A stretch of DNA of 60,257 nucleotides from NCBI GenBank assembly GCA_964519225.1, contig CAZFJK010000004.1:1-60257 (forward strand), written 5' to 3'. Shown here one piece after another: positions 41,201 to 59,200 of the stretch. A program made the position numbers. Source of the stretch: an uncultured Methanosarcinales archaeon (lineage in GTDB: Archaea; Nanobdellota; Nanobdellia; Woesearchaeales; B54-G15). Numbering within the stretch: the stretch's first letter is position 1; each line of letters begins with the position of its first letter.

Positions 41201-44200
41201 CTAAGCTTGCTGTTCTTGGCAACCATGAATTTTATGATCTAAATAGAAACACGCATGAGAAAATAGAAAAGGTAAAAGAAACATTCAGAAAATACAGAAT
41301 TCATTTGCTCGATGAATCTCCTGTGATGATCGAAAACATAGGATTTGTAGGCAATTGCGGTTGGTATGATTACTCTTTCTTTTTTCAAGAAGGAAAGCAT
41401 GGCTTAAATCCCAATGACTATGTTGATGTTGGCGAAGGTTTCAAAAGAGCAGATAAAGTAACGGAAAAAGAATGGAGAAAAATGTGCGAAGCAAAACAAA
41501 TAATAATTCCCAAAGGCGAACAAATATATAGATTCATTTGGAATGATGGAAGATTCATAAATAATCAACACAGTGATTTGGAACGTACATATAATTCAAT
41601 AAGATTGTTAAGAAAACATACCTTGGAATTACTAAAGCAAAACCCAGAACAAATAGTTGTAGTAACTCATCACATACCTTTTATCTCGATGTTAGAAATT
41701 CCAGAAAACAACACAAGCCGAGCTTTTGGAACAGCATTTCTTGGAAGCACAAGATTGGGAGAAGAAATAAAAAAATATAAGAAAGTAAACATTGTAATCT
41801 GCGGACATTCACATAATAGAAAAGAACAATACATAGAGATACCATACAGAAACCCCATACTTTGTTATGAAGTTTCATTAAACCCAAGAGAGCCTCAATT
41901 TACAGAGATAAAGATTTAACAATATACTCCGGCTATGAATGATTCTTTCTCTATAAACCCGGATAGCTCCGAATTAACAACCAAACTTCTCTTAATTAGG
42001 CGAAGACCATCAAGCACATCGCTCCTTTCACAGTAAGAATAAAAACAAACTTCAAAGTCATTCTGTGTTAAGCAATCTTCAAATTCATCAAACAAAGCAA
42101 AAGTCAACTTCCAGATTTTCTTTGTTAAAAGCTCATTAAAAGCAAGATCTGGTTTATCTAATACTATTGCCCCACCAGTTATAGAGATTAAACCTTCTGA
42201 AGTAGTGCGTAAAAATCCTTTTTCTTCTAGCATTTTGAACTGATTCTCGTATCCACCTTTCTCCCTCAAATGTTTAAGTAAGTTCTCTAACCAGTAGCCC
42301 TCTTCAGATTTTGCACTTTCAATTAGCTCAATGGTTTTCCGAATCGACAAAAGCTTTTTAGCAAAAAACTTTGGATAAAATTCTTCAGGCAATTCTTTAT
42401 TATAAGCTTCAATTTCTTTTTCAAACAACAAAAACAAAACATCCGTTTCAAACCCAGTTAATTCAAGATTTTTTTCTAAAAATAATATTTTATTGAAATC
42501 TCTTTTACTCAAGATGCGCAACGGCATATCCTTGTATCGTTTTAAATTTTTCAATGCATTGAACACGTCAGTTTCAGTGATTTTATCTTTTACTAAAACG
42601 TCTGGATTATAACCTGCTCTTTTCAGTGGCTTATAAATACCGAATTTCTTTAAAAGTTTCAAGACAGCTTTTCGTTCTTTTTTCGTTTTAACGCTCAAAA
42701 ACAATTTCAAGAAGTGCTTCTCTAGATCAAAAAACTTCACGTAGCCCGGTTCTGTTTCATAATTCATATCTTTAAACCGCTTTTTAGAGATTTCTATTAA
42801 CTTACTTTCCAAATCTTTGTCTAATCTAAGATCGTGTTCAACAATAAATCTCAGTATTCTGAATAAAAGCATATCATCGATCACAAACTTTTCTCCATGT
42901 AGTTCAAAAAATTCTTTAGTTGGATCTTTAGTAATTCTTTCTAAATCTACCTCTTCAACCGGCGAAAGCGACAACCTTCTATTTTTAACATCTTCCAGCC
43001 AGCGCTTCAAATACTTTTCATCGAACTCAAAAATTGCTTTCACCTTACCTTCGGATGATAAAGCCAACCTACTTAATGTAGTTGAACTTTTCTGAAGGAA
43101 AAGAGCATCAAACCCCCTTCCCACGATATCATCAAACCCTGCTCCTTCGGCTATGGGATGTCCTTTATAAGCTTTGGTTCTTAACTCATGAACAAATTTA
43201 TTTACAAATGTTTGCAAATCCGGATCAGATAAGTAAAGTTGAGGATTTCGAGAGACATCGACATATTTACCTTCAACTAATTTGTATATGCGAATAACAA
43301 GATCAACGTCTGAAAGAAGCTTTGAAGGAAGTTCACCTAACAGTGCCCGCCGCGCATCACCACCAACAATCTCAACTACAAATTTATAACCTTTATCGCT
43401 ATATGTTTTAGAATAAGCTCGTGCTAACGAAAATGCCTTTGCAACAAACCTATCTAATCGCACAGGCATCTTGCCAATTTGAGAATCAAATTCAACAAAC
43501 ACATCAAAATTATTAAAAAGTTCATCAAGTTTGGCAAAATGTTTGTCAACAGCATTCAAATTTCTTACTTCGATTATATCATCTAAAGACTTTTTGATTT
43601 TTTTCTTTTGAGAGGGGGGTGCTTCTTTTTTAAACCATGATTTGACTATATCAACAAGTGTGCGTCTTGTTCCTTTAATTCCTAGCTCGCGTTTAAGTTT
43701 GTTAAGCTCCTTTAAAGTTTCTCTACGCAACTCTAAATCGCGTATTTCAGTTTCTACTCTTATTCTGAATTCATCGAAAACACGCGCAAAACTTTCTAAA
43801 TTTTCAGGAGCAATTTCTGGACGCGGAAGCGCGCCAAAGAGATCTTTAGGCCGCGTTCCCTTTTTGACCTCTTCCAAAATATTAGAAAGTATCGTAGGCC
43901 ACACCTCGACCCTTGAATACGGCACAACACCTCCTTCTATAATCCTTTGTCCAAACGATTCTTCCCTCAATGCTTCCGATAGCCTTTTTCCACCAAGCTC
44001 GGCTTGAAGCAATGGTCTCTGAAGAGCAGACGCTATTAACTGATTCTCTTCCAGCTTCTCTTTTAATCGCTCGAGCTCCTTCCTTAGTTCACTCTTTCTT
44101 TGAACCAAAGTGTTAACAATTTTATCAACAAGCGTTGGATCATCGTAATTCTTGAAGTATCCCTGCACAATACGATAAATCTCAATATCAGGTAATGCTA

Positions 44201-56200: not shown

Positions 56201-59200
56201 TATGTTTACTGACGTGTTTGTACAGTTTTTAGCTATTACTGTTTTCTTAAGCTGATCATCAACATAAACTTTACATGTTCCGTTTTCTGCCATGTTATCA
56301 TAGTAATGGAACTTTATTGTGATGTTTGAAGAGTTATATGTTGTGCATGTAGGGAAATCATATTCTGTTATGCTTGGTTTTGTTGTGTCTATGTGTATAG
56401 TCTGGTCTTCAAGAGCATACGTATTTCCAGCAGAATCGTTGCATACTACGCTTATGTTATGATCGCCTTCAAGAAGTCCTGTTATGTTTACTGACGTGTT
56501 TGTACAGTTTTTAGCTATTACTGTTTTATTGAGTTTGCCGTCGACATAGATTTTACATGTTCCGTTCTCTGCCATATTATCATAGTAATGGAACTTTATT
56601 GTAATGTTTGAGGAGTTATACCAAGTACATGTATGGAAATCGTATTCTGTTATGCTTGGTTTTGTTGTATCTATGTGTATAGTTACATCGTCTGTTGTGT
56701 ATGTGTTTCCAGCTTGATCTTTGAATATTACACTTATATTGTGGTGGCCTTCACTACCGACATTTATTTGTACTTTTTTGGGTGTGCAGTTTGTAGCATT
56801 TCCAGTTGCAACTGTATTTCCATCAACAGTAATATTGTAAGTTAGGTTTTCAGCAAGATTATCTTTTGCATGTATAGTTACATTGATTATTATTGTATTA
56901 AACCATGTGCATGTTGTTGGATCTTCTATAACTGACTCACTTGGCGGGGTTGTATCTATGTGTATAGTCTGGTTCGGTAGGGCATAGACATTTCCAGCAG
57001 AATCGTTGCATACTACGCTTATGTTATGATCGCCTTCAAGAAGTCCTGTTATGTTTACTGACGTGTTTGTACAGTTTTTAGCTATTACTGTTTTCTTAAG
57101 CTGATCATCAACATAAACTTTACATGTTCCGTTCTTTGCCATGTTATCATAGTAATGGAATTTTATTGTGATGTTTGAAGAGTTATACCAAGTGCATGTA
57201 GGGAAATCATATTCTGTTATGCTTGGTTTTGTTGTATCTATGTGTATAGTTACATCGTCTGTTGNNNNNNNNNNNNNNNNNNNNNNNNNNNNNNNNNNNN
57301 NNNNNNNNNNNNNNNNNNNNNNNNNNNNNNNNNNNNNNNNNNNNNNNNNNNNNNNNNNNNNNNNATGTTGTTGGATCTTCTATAACTGACTCACTTGGCG
57401 GGGTTGTATCTATGTGTATTAAAACAGAATCTAAATTTTCAGCCGTGTTTCCATCCTCATCTGTGGCGTTGCATATAGAAATATTGTAATGGCCCTCACC
57501 GGGCAAATTAACCGTAACGTTTGTTGGCGTACAGTTATGAACTTGCCCAGACTTTTCAGGATTGCCATTAACGCAAATTGTATAATTAATCAATTCGCTT
57601 GTATCATCATAAAGGTGAATTGTAACATTGATTACCGTTGTATTAAACCACGTACAAGTCGTAGGATACTCTATCTCTCCCCACGGAAAAGTCGAAGAAT
57701 AGTCTGAAATTTCAACCTGAGAATAAGAAACACTACCAGCCTTAGTACTCGTATATCCCTCACCACCATCAGTTCTTTGGTTATTTACCTCAATCTTCTT
57801 TCCACTAATATCCCCACCAGGTTCTTTACCAGCAATTTCAATACTAAATCTCCCAGCAAAACAAGATATCCAAGTCTCATTCCAAACATCAAATCTTGCA
57901 TACCTGTATTGATAAACTGTGCCATTTCTTAATAAAATAGAAGAATTAACTTCATCATAACTTACAAAAATGTCAGTGAAGTTTTCATTTCCGAAATCAT
58001 AGAAATATGCACATGTTGTGTTATAATTCTGTGTTATGTTTGCTTCATCAGAATAATCTTCAAAATAAGGTAAATCAGGAGCTTTTTCTTTTGATATTAA
58101 TAATTTATCTGGGCCATCTCTTGCTATATAAATTCCAAAACTAAAATAGTCAGGAACAAGATCACCATCATGCATCCAGTAAGCATCAATCCAGTTTATT
58201 TTATCTAAATTTTCAGTCCAATTTTTTAATCTACTTACTTCACTAGCATCCCAGAATTCAACTATTCCATCATTATTTGTATCGTTTTGATTTAAATAAA
58301 GTAAAATTTGATCATCTTCACTTAAAGCAATAAAATCAACCAAACCATCATAATTTACATCAGAAAATATAACCTGTTTTAATCTTGGCAAATCATCCGG
58401 ATCTAAATTACTTTGTTCACTTACATCGTTAAATGTTCCATCACAATTAGAATAAAATAATCTATTATTCGCATACAAATCAGTACATCCATCATTGTTT
58501 AAATCATAAGCATTCGCTCCTAATGGTGATGTGTTGTTTCCAGTAACATTTTCATTTACTCCAGTCAGTAAATCATAATTATAATCACTAGTATTTACTG
58601 CTTTATAAATCCTGTTTGGTTCATTCTCAAAAACCAAATAAATATCTAGATCACCATCACCATCATAATCAAAGAAAAATCCATAAGAAATATTTGTTTT
58701 ATTTTCAATTTCCAATGAAAATTTAGTCATATCATAAAACAAAGTATCATTATGCTTCATATATAAACCATTCAAAACAAAATCATTTTTTCCATCATTG
58801 TTAAAATCTCCAATATTAGGAATTCTATGAGGACTTCTATCTAGAGCATATACAAAGTAAGAAAATAACATAGATAGAAATAGTATGAACACTATTCTTA
58901 ACCCTATCTTCCACCCCTTTTTTTCCATATATTACCGTAGAGAAGGAAAACGAGAATATTTAAAAAGTTTTCTCACATCTTTGCGAAATAAACTATTTTT
59001 CTAATCCATATGATTTCAAAATATTGGTTAAGTATAAAGCAGAAGTAATATTGCTAAATACACTAGTTATTGGCTGAGAAGAATCATAGAATCCTTCTGG
59101 ACCTTTAAAAACTCCGAAAGGAGAACTTGAGATTATACCACGAACCAATCTATCATTAAATGTTAATTCTCCTAGGAAATCATCTTTAGCAAGAGATTTA

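Follow-up and report, generated by a model that had tools for sequence, protein, structure and literature searches.

A giant surface protein of a Woesearchaeales archaeon carries a chain of enzyme domains probably used against another cell

Background

It is an open question how DPANN archaea gain control over the cells on which they depend, and the available part of one study of their surface giants speaks of 'yet unknown effectors' (PMC10266531). Here we ask whether a giant gene of an uncultured member of the Woesearchaeales could encode such effectors. The window (the whole stretch of DNA analysed, 60,257 nucleotides of contig CAZFJK010000004.1) is chromosomal, with gyrB, an Lhr-like helicase and a thermosome gene present on the contig; the locus and gyrB are absent from the sole same-genus genome examined, which is 81% complete.

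Results and discussion

One reading frame across two scaffold gaps

As the survey's finding described, the two ORFs flanking the 10-N gap at 47418-47427 are both open and their frames differ by one. The bridging contig of run X1 reported there was recovered (record 3, spanning 46074-48229), with the 28 extra letters that restore the frame; the gap is then 38 nt, which with one leftover base makes 13 codons. Record 25 of X4, from a different study and a strain approximately 95% identical, also bridges the gap with a net gain of 55 letters, the same modulo 3, which answers the worry that the sole bridge came from a possible source sample (X1). This join was judged on the length and frame of the bridging contigs. 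Across the gap at 57265-57364, position 57365 is joined to 56910 in frame via an Ig repeat in X2 and X4 contigs; 55 letters fit both flanks, so that the number of Ig repeats is ambiguous. The FG-GAP ORF, which terminates in phase within an Ig repeat, is by this join the upstream extension that had been suspected. The joined giant is a single ORF on the reverse strand (58928-41916) of at least 5,528 aa, or approximately 5,700 aa if the upstream gap holds 213 nt, and its true start is the ATG at 58928, followed by an N-terminal hydrophobic segment. The earlier claim of one frame of more than 5,000 residues is borne out, with the start moved to include the FG-GAP ORF. Its layout, in which the FG-GAP, Ig-like, SpoIIE and HipA_2 calls made previously were all reproduced, is as follows.

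57366..58928, reverse strand: N-terminal part with signal/TM segment (58833-58916), FG-GAP repeats and first Ig-like repeat (FG-GAP_3 E 4.8e-13)
57265..57364: 100-N scaffold gap in the Ig-repeat array (repeat period 282-285 nt)
55508..57262, reverse strand: sequon-rich stalk of Ig-like repeats (Big_13 E 4.6e-14)
54758..55495, reverse strand: Pro/Cys-rich linker with an acidic double-disulfide repeat (NF033662 E 1e-5, under cut-off)
53969..54757, reverse strand: membrane bundle (7 hydrophobic segments by hydropathy scan, 8 by eye; Lys-rich inner loops)
47963..53968, reverse strand: charged, sequon-depleted helical region of about 2,000 aa with Cys clusters and strain-variable patches
47429..47935, reverse strand: Gly/Ala-rich, weakly hydrophobic hairpin (KD 1.56) preceding the enzymes
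47418..47427: 10-N scaffold gap, frame kept (X1 record 3, X4 record 25)
46503..47165, reverse strand: PP2C/SpoIIE-type phosphatase (SpoIIE profile over cut-off)
44802..45260, reverse strand: probable R-S-E ADP-ribosyltransferase (ART; motifs, atlas look-alikes)
44043..44735, reverse strand: HipA/PI3K-like kinase (HipA_2, phrog_3162, family alignment)
42558..43520, reverse strand: Pol-beta-type nucleotidyltransferase of class II CCA/PAP-like layout (homologues in P0005 and G007)

The last bundle helix (about 53969-54052) resembles an internal signal peptide and has a cleavage site of small residues, the bundle topology having been inferred by eye from hydropathy and sequence rather than with SignalP or DeepTMHMM. 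Family searches gave no convincing match for the helical region. The hairpin, a candidate translocation element, weakly matches the G181 giant (E 0.041 over 150 aa), a match that a profile without the query itself did not recover.

Three enzyme domains and a probable fourth

The phosphatase clears its Pfam cut-off (SpoIIE 35.6 bits against 25, E 1.2e-8) and retains D93, D110, D245 and D294/295 (P0001 numbering), which we take to be the four metal-binding Asp motifs of PP2C. The kinase and transferase matches lie below curated cut-offs, as previously stated: HipA_2 scores 23.6 bits against 27 (E 3.4e-5) and the nucleotidyltransferase gave no hit in Pfam, NCBIfam or PDB profile searches. The kinase also matches phrog_3162 (E 2.4e-6), and its set of Lys, Glu, catalytic Asp/Asn and metal-binding Asp is complete, K910, E924, D999, N1005 and D1018 being invariant in a family alignment of nine (A1); the Gly-rich loop of the A1 consensus is absent from the query. 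In the nucleotidyltransferase G1352-G1353, D1370 and D1372 are invariant in alignments of three sequences (A4/A5), and this Gly-Gly and Asp-x-Asp pair is presumably the class II CCA catalytic core; the nucleotide-selecting motifs that we assume to be canonical for those enzymes are not intact by eye. The domain has a homologue in P0005 (E 2.6e-14) and others in G007. Of the earlier CCA-type assignment the core motifs stand and a PolyA_pol/CCA profile match does not, and the term is used here for a likeness of fold and motif, claiming no class II CCA membership and implying no CCA-adding activity. The protein as a whole has no homologue, as had been said, but relatives of its kinase and transferase domains occur in other giants.

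A fourth enzyme domain, missed before, lies between phosphatase and kinase and is a probable R-S-E ART. The motifs occur in order and spacing (R727, S801-x-T803, E846-x-E848), and all named look-alikes in the atlas are ART families (0.91-0.94, within atlas scores of 0.91-0.95), with recognition below the atlas threshold. Profile searches gave no significant family or structure hit, NarE and Scabin-like included, and a 3-seed profile no significant match; DUF7587 reached E 0.11 and AlphaFold models of the region have pLDDT 38 and 35. Aligned globally to the ART of G092 the region gives z 3.6, a score exceeded by 0 of 1000 shuffles and 2 of 2,340 natural windows. An R-S-E search pattern, composed only after the domain had been inspected, matched four other distinct long proteins among 103 long sequences, all ART-annotated, together with three short ORFs in 0.9 million residues. 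An ART at this position would explain the ADP-ribosylglycohydrolase (ARH) encoded head-on to the giant.

Neighbouring genes and relatives in other genomes

The genes facing the giant's 3' end were identified as follows, with the ARH, PHP and metallophosphoesterase domains of the survey recovered.

41023..41919, forward strand: calcineurin-like metallophosphoesterase, candidate eraser (Metallophos E 1.1e-17)
39813..41009, forward strand: PHP hydrolase fused to a 180-aa domain without family, candidate eraser (PHP_C E 5.7e-16)
38871..39800, forward strand: DraG/Tri1-like ARH, candidate eraser for the ART (ARH E 1.8e-76)
38314..38856, forward strand: stand-alone copy of the PHP-fused domain (83/181 identical to the PHP C-terminal copy)
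35501..36163, forward strand: third, distant copy of the PHP-fused domain (E 3e-4)

The ARH matches Tri1 (E 4.6e-31) and DraG (E 1.3e-27), both under equivalog cut-offs, and the stand-alone domain at 38314..38856 matched no family and had no credible relative in 380 other genomes. The kinase family occurs in 7 of 401 genomes, always within ORFs of 609-5,736 aa; 19 of its relatives were scanned, six having an ART family and five a MuF domain. In G238 a secreted 2,384-aa protein ends in the same kinase family (E 7e-19), and in G092 two ARH-like genes lie head-on to a 5,427-aa giant that combines this kinase with an ART (phrog_802 E 5.8e-6) and a transferase-like domain. The G181 giant carries PP2C (E 1e-12), the G092 and G399 relatives give a weak DEAD/ResIII-like helicase hit, and enzyme sets vary widely among families of giants.

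The head-on ARH, PHP and phosphoesterase genes appear to belong to the system as erasers rather than to be bystanders. It is unlikely that they are unconnected with the giant, as orphan or general-purpose repair genes within a variable island, although of the alternatives this survives best: ARH is found in 55 of 401 genomes, mostly away from giants, no ART was shown in the giants of G238 and G181, and G266, which carries the kinase, gave no ARH hit. Against it, the phosphoesterase gene overlaps the giant's stop by 4 bp, the G238 kinase protein lies head-on with an ARH and with a PHP homologous to that of the query (E 1e-36), and G399 has the two fused (E 5e-52). ARH is also present in 3 of 4 published non-query kinase carriers compared with 47 of 392 other genomes (p 0.007), and lies within 3 kb past a giant's 3' end at 7 of 58 loci as against 20 of 670 control genes, a four-fold enrichment (p 0.004) in which the seven represent about five layouts, kin not being independent. 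The other 51 loci have no giant in reach, many being on short contigs, and at three the gene caller recovered no ARH ORF. An ART is tool-supported in one of the seven ARH-flanked giants, four share one domain without assignment and two show none.

Sequon statistics and topology

N-glycosylation sequons before the bundle number 73 against about 21 expected (22 against 7.5 in the N-terminal part, 51 against 13 in the Ig stalk). After the bundle there are 2 against 14.5 (p 2e-4), with 2 against 7.3 in the helical region and 0 against 7.1 from the hairpin to the C-terminus (p 0.0015). Soluble ORFs of the same genome are near neutral (409 against 450), as are 431 soluble control ORFs (709 against 725) and 58 ARH proteins (99 against 108.5). 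Twelve multi-enzyme giants from related genomes, six opening with a plain signal peptide and six being sequences without a clear start, contain 11 against 256.6 expected, with shifted or swapped control motifs near expectation (e.g. 259 against 264), and the C-terminal halves of other giants are likewise depleted. Since the enzyme parts are depleted and soluble ORFs are not, the enzymes probably leave the producer's cytoplasm, despite their need for ATP or NAD+. Signal-peptide proteins without a recognised enzyme are also depleted, so depletion marks export and not entry into a target. AglB was found in three of five genomes tested, and none was found in this assembly or in G399; other secreted proteins of G000 are sequon-rich (e.g. 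133 against 44.5), so the AglB gene may be unassembled. TM predictors had not decided the topology of giant proteins, and the sequon test resolves part of that question: where archaea N-glycosylate their proteins, the sequence by itself distinguishes glycosylated ectodomains, cytoplasmic domains and exported unglycosylated domains.

A proposed contact-delivered effector and its alternatives

That this is a giant surface protein whose enzyme chain is probably used against another cell, as first proposed, is supported, and the sequon test and comparable giants from within the same taxonomic order add strength. We consider it reasonably probable that the giant, tethered to the surface, is a polyvalent effector delivered on contact and accompanied by immunity genes of eraser type. 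The sequon excess places the FG-GAP head and Ig stalk outside the cell, as an adhesin that is presumably glycosylated. The bundle would anchor the protein, and its last helix, serving as an internal signal peptide, would export the approximately 4,000 aa that follow and possibly cleave them off; the sequon statistics strongly indicate that these residues pass a membrane's outer face and have been selected to stay unglycosylated. The helical region and hairpin may then thread the C-terminal approximately 1,830 aa into a cell in contact; drawing on that cell's ATP and NAD+, the phosphatase, ART, kinase and nucleotidyltransferase would rewrite protein or RNA modifications there. No delivery machine was identified. 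Remaining inside the producer, the ARH, PHP and phosphoesterase would clear away ADP-ribose, phosphate or nucleotide marks left by back-leak or sibling attack. The target is probably a host and not competing kin, as the enzymes recognised here are modifiers, comparable to those found in phage take-over proteins, and none is a nuclease.

Export without translocation, the enzymes acting on surfaces or leaked cytoplasm at the contact site or being decayed passengers of an adhesin, seems to us quite improbable. It is consistent with the sequon loss in enzyme-free secreted proteins, the lack of a visible translocon, the divergent kinase loop and the sub-threshold kinase and transferase scores. However, all four domains retain their catalytic residues, cytoplasmic erasers would serve no purpose, and the one-base indels listed for X1 and X4 occur as compensating pairs. 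ATP and NAD+ are moreover scarce outside cells.

We give still less credence to receptor-like writer/eraser signalling in the producer, in which the ectodomain senses contact, a hairpin or odd helix count re-inserts the enzymes into the producer's cytoplasm and the neighbouring genes' products undo the marks in the way of DraT/DraG. All four enzymes have cytoplasmic substrates and adjacent erasers, a kinase and phosphatase in one chain suggest switching, the topology was read by eye, and for 46% of its giants an Omnitrophota preprint, as available, keeps a membrane-anchored cytoplasmic reading (10.64898/2026.06.07.730766). Against this stand the absence of sequons from the hairpin on, seen also in other giants while soluble proteins are neutral, comparable giants such as those of G238, G092 and G072, in which an opening signal peptide makes a bundle unnecessary, and the closest kinase relatives, which are conflict proteins. 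Finally, two or three separate genes joined by scaffolding alone are scarcely credible: N gaps lie at each of the junctions, the second is bridged by way of a repeat and no single contig spans the gene, but the first gap is bridged in two studies in the same frame, the flanks are open up to each gap, and the downstream piece lacks a signal peptide yet is equally sequon-depleted.

Comparison with known systems

Our literature searches found no earlier description of such a class. The likeness to predator giants drawn in the survey holds as regards host-dependent small cells with multi-enzyme giants, but the locus is nearer to polyvalent proteins and polymorphic toxins. Polyvalent proteins carry several conflict enzymes per chain and are thought to be delivered into the host cell, with ART, kinase and Pol-beta nucleotidyltransferase among their core classes as named in the available text (PMC5512222). 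The giant similarly has at least two conflict enzyme domains in one chain, and the nearest relatives of its kinase sit in MuF- and LPD38-bearing proteins. It differs in being chromosomal in a cellular archaeon, in having a signal peptide, adhesin and bundle instead of virion or conjugation delivery, in its adjacent eraser genes, in the absence of MuF and ArdC from Pfam scans, and in its PP2C, 'phosphatase' being absent from the main text of that paper as available.

Polymorphic toxins with enzymatic immunity, where the accessible sections pair Imm-ARG with R-S-E ARTs (also Tre1/Tri1) and treat ARH as immunity to such ARTs (PMC3482391, PMC8120803), share the export signal, adhesive repeats, long stalk, C-terminal toxin-like enzymes and adjacent DraG-like hydrolase, here putatively the immunity protein. 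Unlike them, the giant has four serial enzymes and not one swappable tip, its immunity candidates are convergent and not co-directional, no orphan cassettes or autoprotease were recognised, and the available text of PMC3482391 does not mention PHP or calcineurin-like candidates. As to exchange of the C-terminal toxin among close relatives, the same C-terminal region is present in X3 and X4.

Omnitrophota giants, also membrane-associated multi-enzyme proteins of host-dependent small cells, are tied to cell-wall degradation and have SecA-like domains according to the accessible parts of two preprints (bioRxiv 2023.11.21.568195; 10.64898/2026.06.07.730766), which leave their topology unresolved and whose main text as available does not mention ADP-ribosyl. 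The query giant is far shorter with few TM helices, and Pfam scans of P0001-P0003 found no SecA-DEAD, glycosyl hydrolase or dockerin domain, features of the Archaeovorin and Dockerin types, and no helicase or peptidase. The SPEARE giants of Nanohaloarchaeota are likewise DPANN proteins that combine a signal peptide with an Ig-like ectodomain and a membrane anchor, and a role in subjugating the host has been proposed for them; the available text has them end in a VirB4/TraG-like ATPase, lack other enzymes and inject the effectors cited at the outset (PMC10266531). No VirB4/TraG-like ATPase was hit in P0001 or P0002 by Pfam scan, and the query giant, unlike SPEAREs, looks like the effector cargo itself.

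Conclusions

The locus is a concrete candidate for how symbiotic archaea manipulate the cells they touch, supplying named candidate enzymes and candidate antidotes that could be tested one domain at a time in laboratory strains, with no need to culture the organism. More tentatively, and in our view possible though short of probable, Woesearchaeales may have a lineage-wide arsenal of Sec-exported giants, deliberately kept unglycosylated, that thread strings of take-over enzymes into hosts without the help of any known injection machine. The enzymes would include kinases, ARTs, nucleotidyltransferases and phosphatases along with HD and GGDEF domains, and the producers would protect themselves with one eraser per type of mark. 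Were this so, DPANN archaea would have their missing effectors in these giants, and translocated archaeal proteins could be sought genome-wide by their avoidance of sequons.

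A single reading frame across two gaps

The window's contig belongs to a genome of 869 kb that is 97% complete, and the two long ORFs on either side of a 10-N gap that the survey had described were reproduced as stated. Comparison with contigs of four sequencing runs (X1-X4) shows that record 3 of X1 bridges this gap with 28 extra letters, giving a gap of 38 nt which together with one leftover base makes 13 codons and keeps the frame; X4, from another study and ~95% identical, crosses it with net +55 letters in a frame equal to that of X1. The upstream FG-GAP ORF, previously offered as a possible extension, belongs to the giant, as its own end falls inside an Ig repeat and contigs of X2 and X4 connect 57365 to 56910 across the 100-N gap, in frame, via an Ig repeat. 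Given in-frame joins at both gaps the giant runs from the ATG at 58928 to 41916, with a length of 5,528 aa in joined form and likely ~5,700 aa once the probable repeat count is included. Coverage is piecewise, no single contig of the runs compared covering the whole giant; with both gaps joined in frame, separate genes are an extremely unlikely reading. The main features are as follows.

58928-41916, minus strand: the giant
47429-47935, minus strand: weakly hydrophobic Gly/Ala-rich hairpin
44802-45260, minus strand: probable ADP-ribosyltransferase (ART) domain
38871-39800, plus strand: ADP-ribosylglycohydrolase (ARH)
39813-41009, plus strand: PHP
41023-41919, plus strand: metallophosphoesterase

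In X1 and X4 the helical region shows strain-variable patches with compensating indels, in which diversifying selection or recombination is possible, and X4 carries different sequence past 58975, upstream of the giant.

50504-50800, 48416-48488 and 48783-48851: strain-variable patches
58993-60257, minus strand: low-GC (28.6%) ORF upstream of the giant, no family matched

Domain architecture and recognised enzymes

From N to C terminus the giant comprises a signal/TM segment, FG-GAP repeats, Ig repeats, a Cys/Pro linker and a membrane bundle, followed by ~2,000 aa of charged helices, the hairpin and then the enzymes. The PP2C domain exceeds the Pfam cut-off and has its Asp motifs. The kinase retains K910, E924, D999, N1005 and D1018 (numbering of P0001, the ORF beyond the 10-N gap) and is missing the Gly-rich loop of its family; since an ART family was present in 6/19 and MuF in 5/19 of the relatives scanned, it groups with phage polyvalent proteins. 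The nucleotidyltransferase, which the survey had called CCA-type, keeps a Gly-Gly/Asp-x-Asp core in common with a protein of another genome of the order (G007) and with P0005, a protein of 3,494 aa with a signal peptide, LamG domains, helices, a hairpin, a kinase-like stretch (by eye) and a transferase. As it had no match in Pfam or PDB profile searches we do not name it a CCA enzyme. PDB profile searches with kinase and transferase gave nothing significant, a transferase alignment pattern scanned over the genome contigs gave 166 matches with none confirmed, and a hairpin profile built without the giant did not retrieve it. Weak matches to tape-measure proteins, NheC, FlaC and PA-IIL were discarded as compositional, and a sigma-70 promoter scan, a model unsuited to archaea, was below chance.

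A probable ADP-ribosyltransferase

Residues 720-872 of P0001, between phosphatase and kinase and overlooked by the survey, very probably form an R-S-E ART, judging from sequence: R727, S801-T803 (Ser-x-Thr) and E846/E848 (Glu-x-Glu) occur in the order seen in such enzymes. All named look-alikes in the atlas, which scored 0.91-0.94, were ART families (NarE, Pertussis_S1/Scabin, Lart1) or DUF7587; unnamed clusters reached 0.95, and recognition stayed below threshold. A post hoc R-S-E pattern matched four other distinct long proteins, each independently annotated as ART, as well as 3 short ORFs in 0.9 million residues, and alignment with the ART of G092, another genome of the order, outscored 1000/1000 shuffles, while 2/2,340 natural windows scored higher.

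No relatives of the domain were found in a set of 5.8 billion, among 1.84 billion representatives (32 other matches, which fell on the kinase or transferase), in phages or in a metagenome scan, and plasmids gave 3 chance matches only. The G092 ART was likewise without relatives in a homologue search. A joint ART and kinase query, insensitive in that it also missed G238, matched 0/400 other genomes of the order, a 3-seed ART profile did not retrieve the domain, other profile searches gave no significant match and two AlphaFold models gave no usable fold. CTX and MTX modify arginine and are tabulated with two Glu, and Arg-ADP-ribose is cleaved by DraG/Tri1 (PMC8120803); the ARH adjoining the giant is of DraG/Tri1 type.

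Neighbouring genes

ARH occurs in 55/401 genomes of the order with 64 matches, from which 58 loci were read after setting aside the matches in the window's genome and in three unpublished genomes and merging two matches into one locus. The unpublished genomes (G112, G183, G370) count only in 55/401 and in the 7/401 genomes with the kinase family, and were left out of both tests. At 7/58 loci (about 5 independent layouts) a giant ORF had the ARH beyond its 3' end, within 3 kb, compared with 20/670 control genes from 60 stretches of the genomes that hold these loci (p 0.004); inside the window's genome 23/624 genes showed this proximity. ARH was also present in 3/4 published non-query kinase carriers versus 47/392 other genomes (p 0.007).

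In G238 a secreted giant ends in the same kinase family and faces, head-on, an ARH and a PHP homologous to the window's; in G399 an ARH is fused to a PHP of the window's type, and another contig encodes a kinase-bearing giant whose length is 5,736 aa or more. The G092 giant has kinase, ART and transferase-like domains and two ARH-like genes head-on, and G007:C5, first found as a weak transferase match (E 1e-3), is also among the 58 loci. That the neighbours are unrelated to the giant, a reading judged independently of the other alternatives, we consider unlikely in the light of the ARH enrichment beside giants; on its side, most ARH loci lack a nearby giant and only 1/7 ARH-flanked giants has a tool-supported ART. 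From their chemistry, the PHP and phosphoesterase would be erasers of kinase or transferase marks.

A 180-aa domain is present in three copies in the cluster with no family matched, and the domain at 38314 had no family and no atlas match, its two weak genome matches being discarded as unrelated ORFs. Other genes lie in or near the cluster, of which the hydrolase may hint at bacterial partners.

37872-38183, minus strand: 103-aa opposite-strand ORF, breaks the plus-strand cluster
37265-37855, plus strand: DUF4013 membrane protein, also breaks into the cluster
32566-33300, minus strand: SleB-like cell wall hydrolase with a membrane anchor (Hydrolase_2, E 1.6e-12), 2 kb away from the cluster

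Sequon counts and membrane side

Archaeal AglB glycosylates Asn-x-Ser/Thr sequons outside the cell. In the giant, sequons are in excess before the bundle (22 against 7.5 expected and 51 against 13.1) and scarce after it (2 against 14.5; 0 against 7.1 from hairpin to end), with soluble ORFs of the same genome neutral (n=393; 409 against 450). Twelve multi-enzyme giants of 8 other genomes, chosen ahead of the sequon count for their domains or for their nearness to ARH, held 11 sequons in 43,548 aa where 256.6 were expected, with control motifs close to expectation; 431 soluble control ORFs (709 against 725) and 58 ARH proteins (99 against 108.5) were close to it too. The loss was absent from six long proteins of the kinase search (P0006, P0007, P0020, P0026, P0034, P0038). 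Nothing would drive a domain that stays in the cytoplasm to avoid sequons, so the giant's enzymes most probably pass the membrane's outer face. Consistent with export, the final bundle helix looks by eye like an internal signal peptide, and 6/12 multi-enzyme giants carry a plain signal peptide.

AglB/STT3 was not found in the window's assembly (found in 3/5 genomes tested), despite which sequons abound in most of the large secreted proteins it encodes; the gene may be unassembled, or glycosylation may be by an enzyme of another cell. Among 89 ORFs with enough expected sites, depletion is also seen in secreted proteins without a recognised enzyme, and the order's exported proteins seem to fall into sequon-rich and sequon-free classes. 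The test thus points to export, not to entry into a target. Near-zero-sequon proteins with a signal peptide and no recognised enzyme, in loci of other genomes, are:

L094:4477-7875
L103:8651-11794
L068:3523-5838
L020:11616-15266
L110:12397-19998
L121:8035-11241

Other giants of the order

Four giants have one C-terminal domain in common, and a HEAT-repeat-ARH fusion comes after each. The domain had no Pfam match and nothing significant in a PDB profile search; by eye it might be a His-type ART. Prepilin-like genes (by eye) immediately precede three enzyme-bearing giants, for which a pilus-like mount could be a delivery route; none lies upstream of the window's giant.

L027:11899-12606, L033:12342-13199, L034:6778-7410 and L005:17946-18533: common C-terminal domain
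L012:215-1234, L033:17537-18592 and L064:16326-17090: prepilin-like genes
L014:2-8158: secreted, 2,719 aa; three protein kinase domains, glycosyltransferase, GGDEF, HD and DUF294 nucleotidyltransferase; 0 sequons against 14.9 expected
G236:C3:30002-59248 (L067 and L034): one open frame of >9,700 aa; FHA, HD, HATPase, HEAT and, by eye, a metallophosphoesterase domain; 1 sequon against 51 expected

Proposed mechanism and known systems

On balance the giant probably delivers enzymes to a partner cell, with erasers protecting the producer. The adhesin would attach to the partner, the bundle would anchor the giant and export its second half, helices and hairpin would carry the string of enzymes into the cytoplasm of the partner, which would be the sole site with ATP, NAD+ and substrates, and the erasers would guard the producer. 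The first two steps build on domain matches and export on statistics; translocation, target and erasure we infer, with a host about twice as probable a target as kin. That the enzymes are extracellular or decayed passengers would suit export by itself and the missing Gly-rich loop, and would sit poorly with the retained kinase residues and the need for ATP and NAD+; we regard it as quite improbable. Signalling within the producer would fit enzymes of cytoplasmic substrates and is less probable still, given the loss of sequons.

Going by the available text on each system, the giant works like a polyvalent protein (PMC5512222), whose mobile-element feature it does not share, has the build of polymorphic toxins whose immunity is enzymatic (PMC3482391), leaving the swappable-tip feature aside, and is not a SPEARE protein (PMC10266531). 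It resembles polyvalent proteins and polymorphic toxins more closely than the multi-enzyme giants to which the survey compared it, and is not of the Omnitrophota type. Full-text searching, mainly of open-access main texts, found no description of such effectors in Woesearchaeales, nor of avoided sequons being used to mark export. Archaeal polymorphic toxins were reportedly reviewed in 2019. The giant is real and bigger than first described, and it is one member of an apparently undescribed class in the order.
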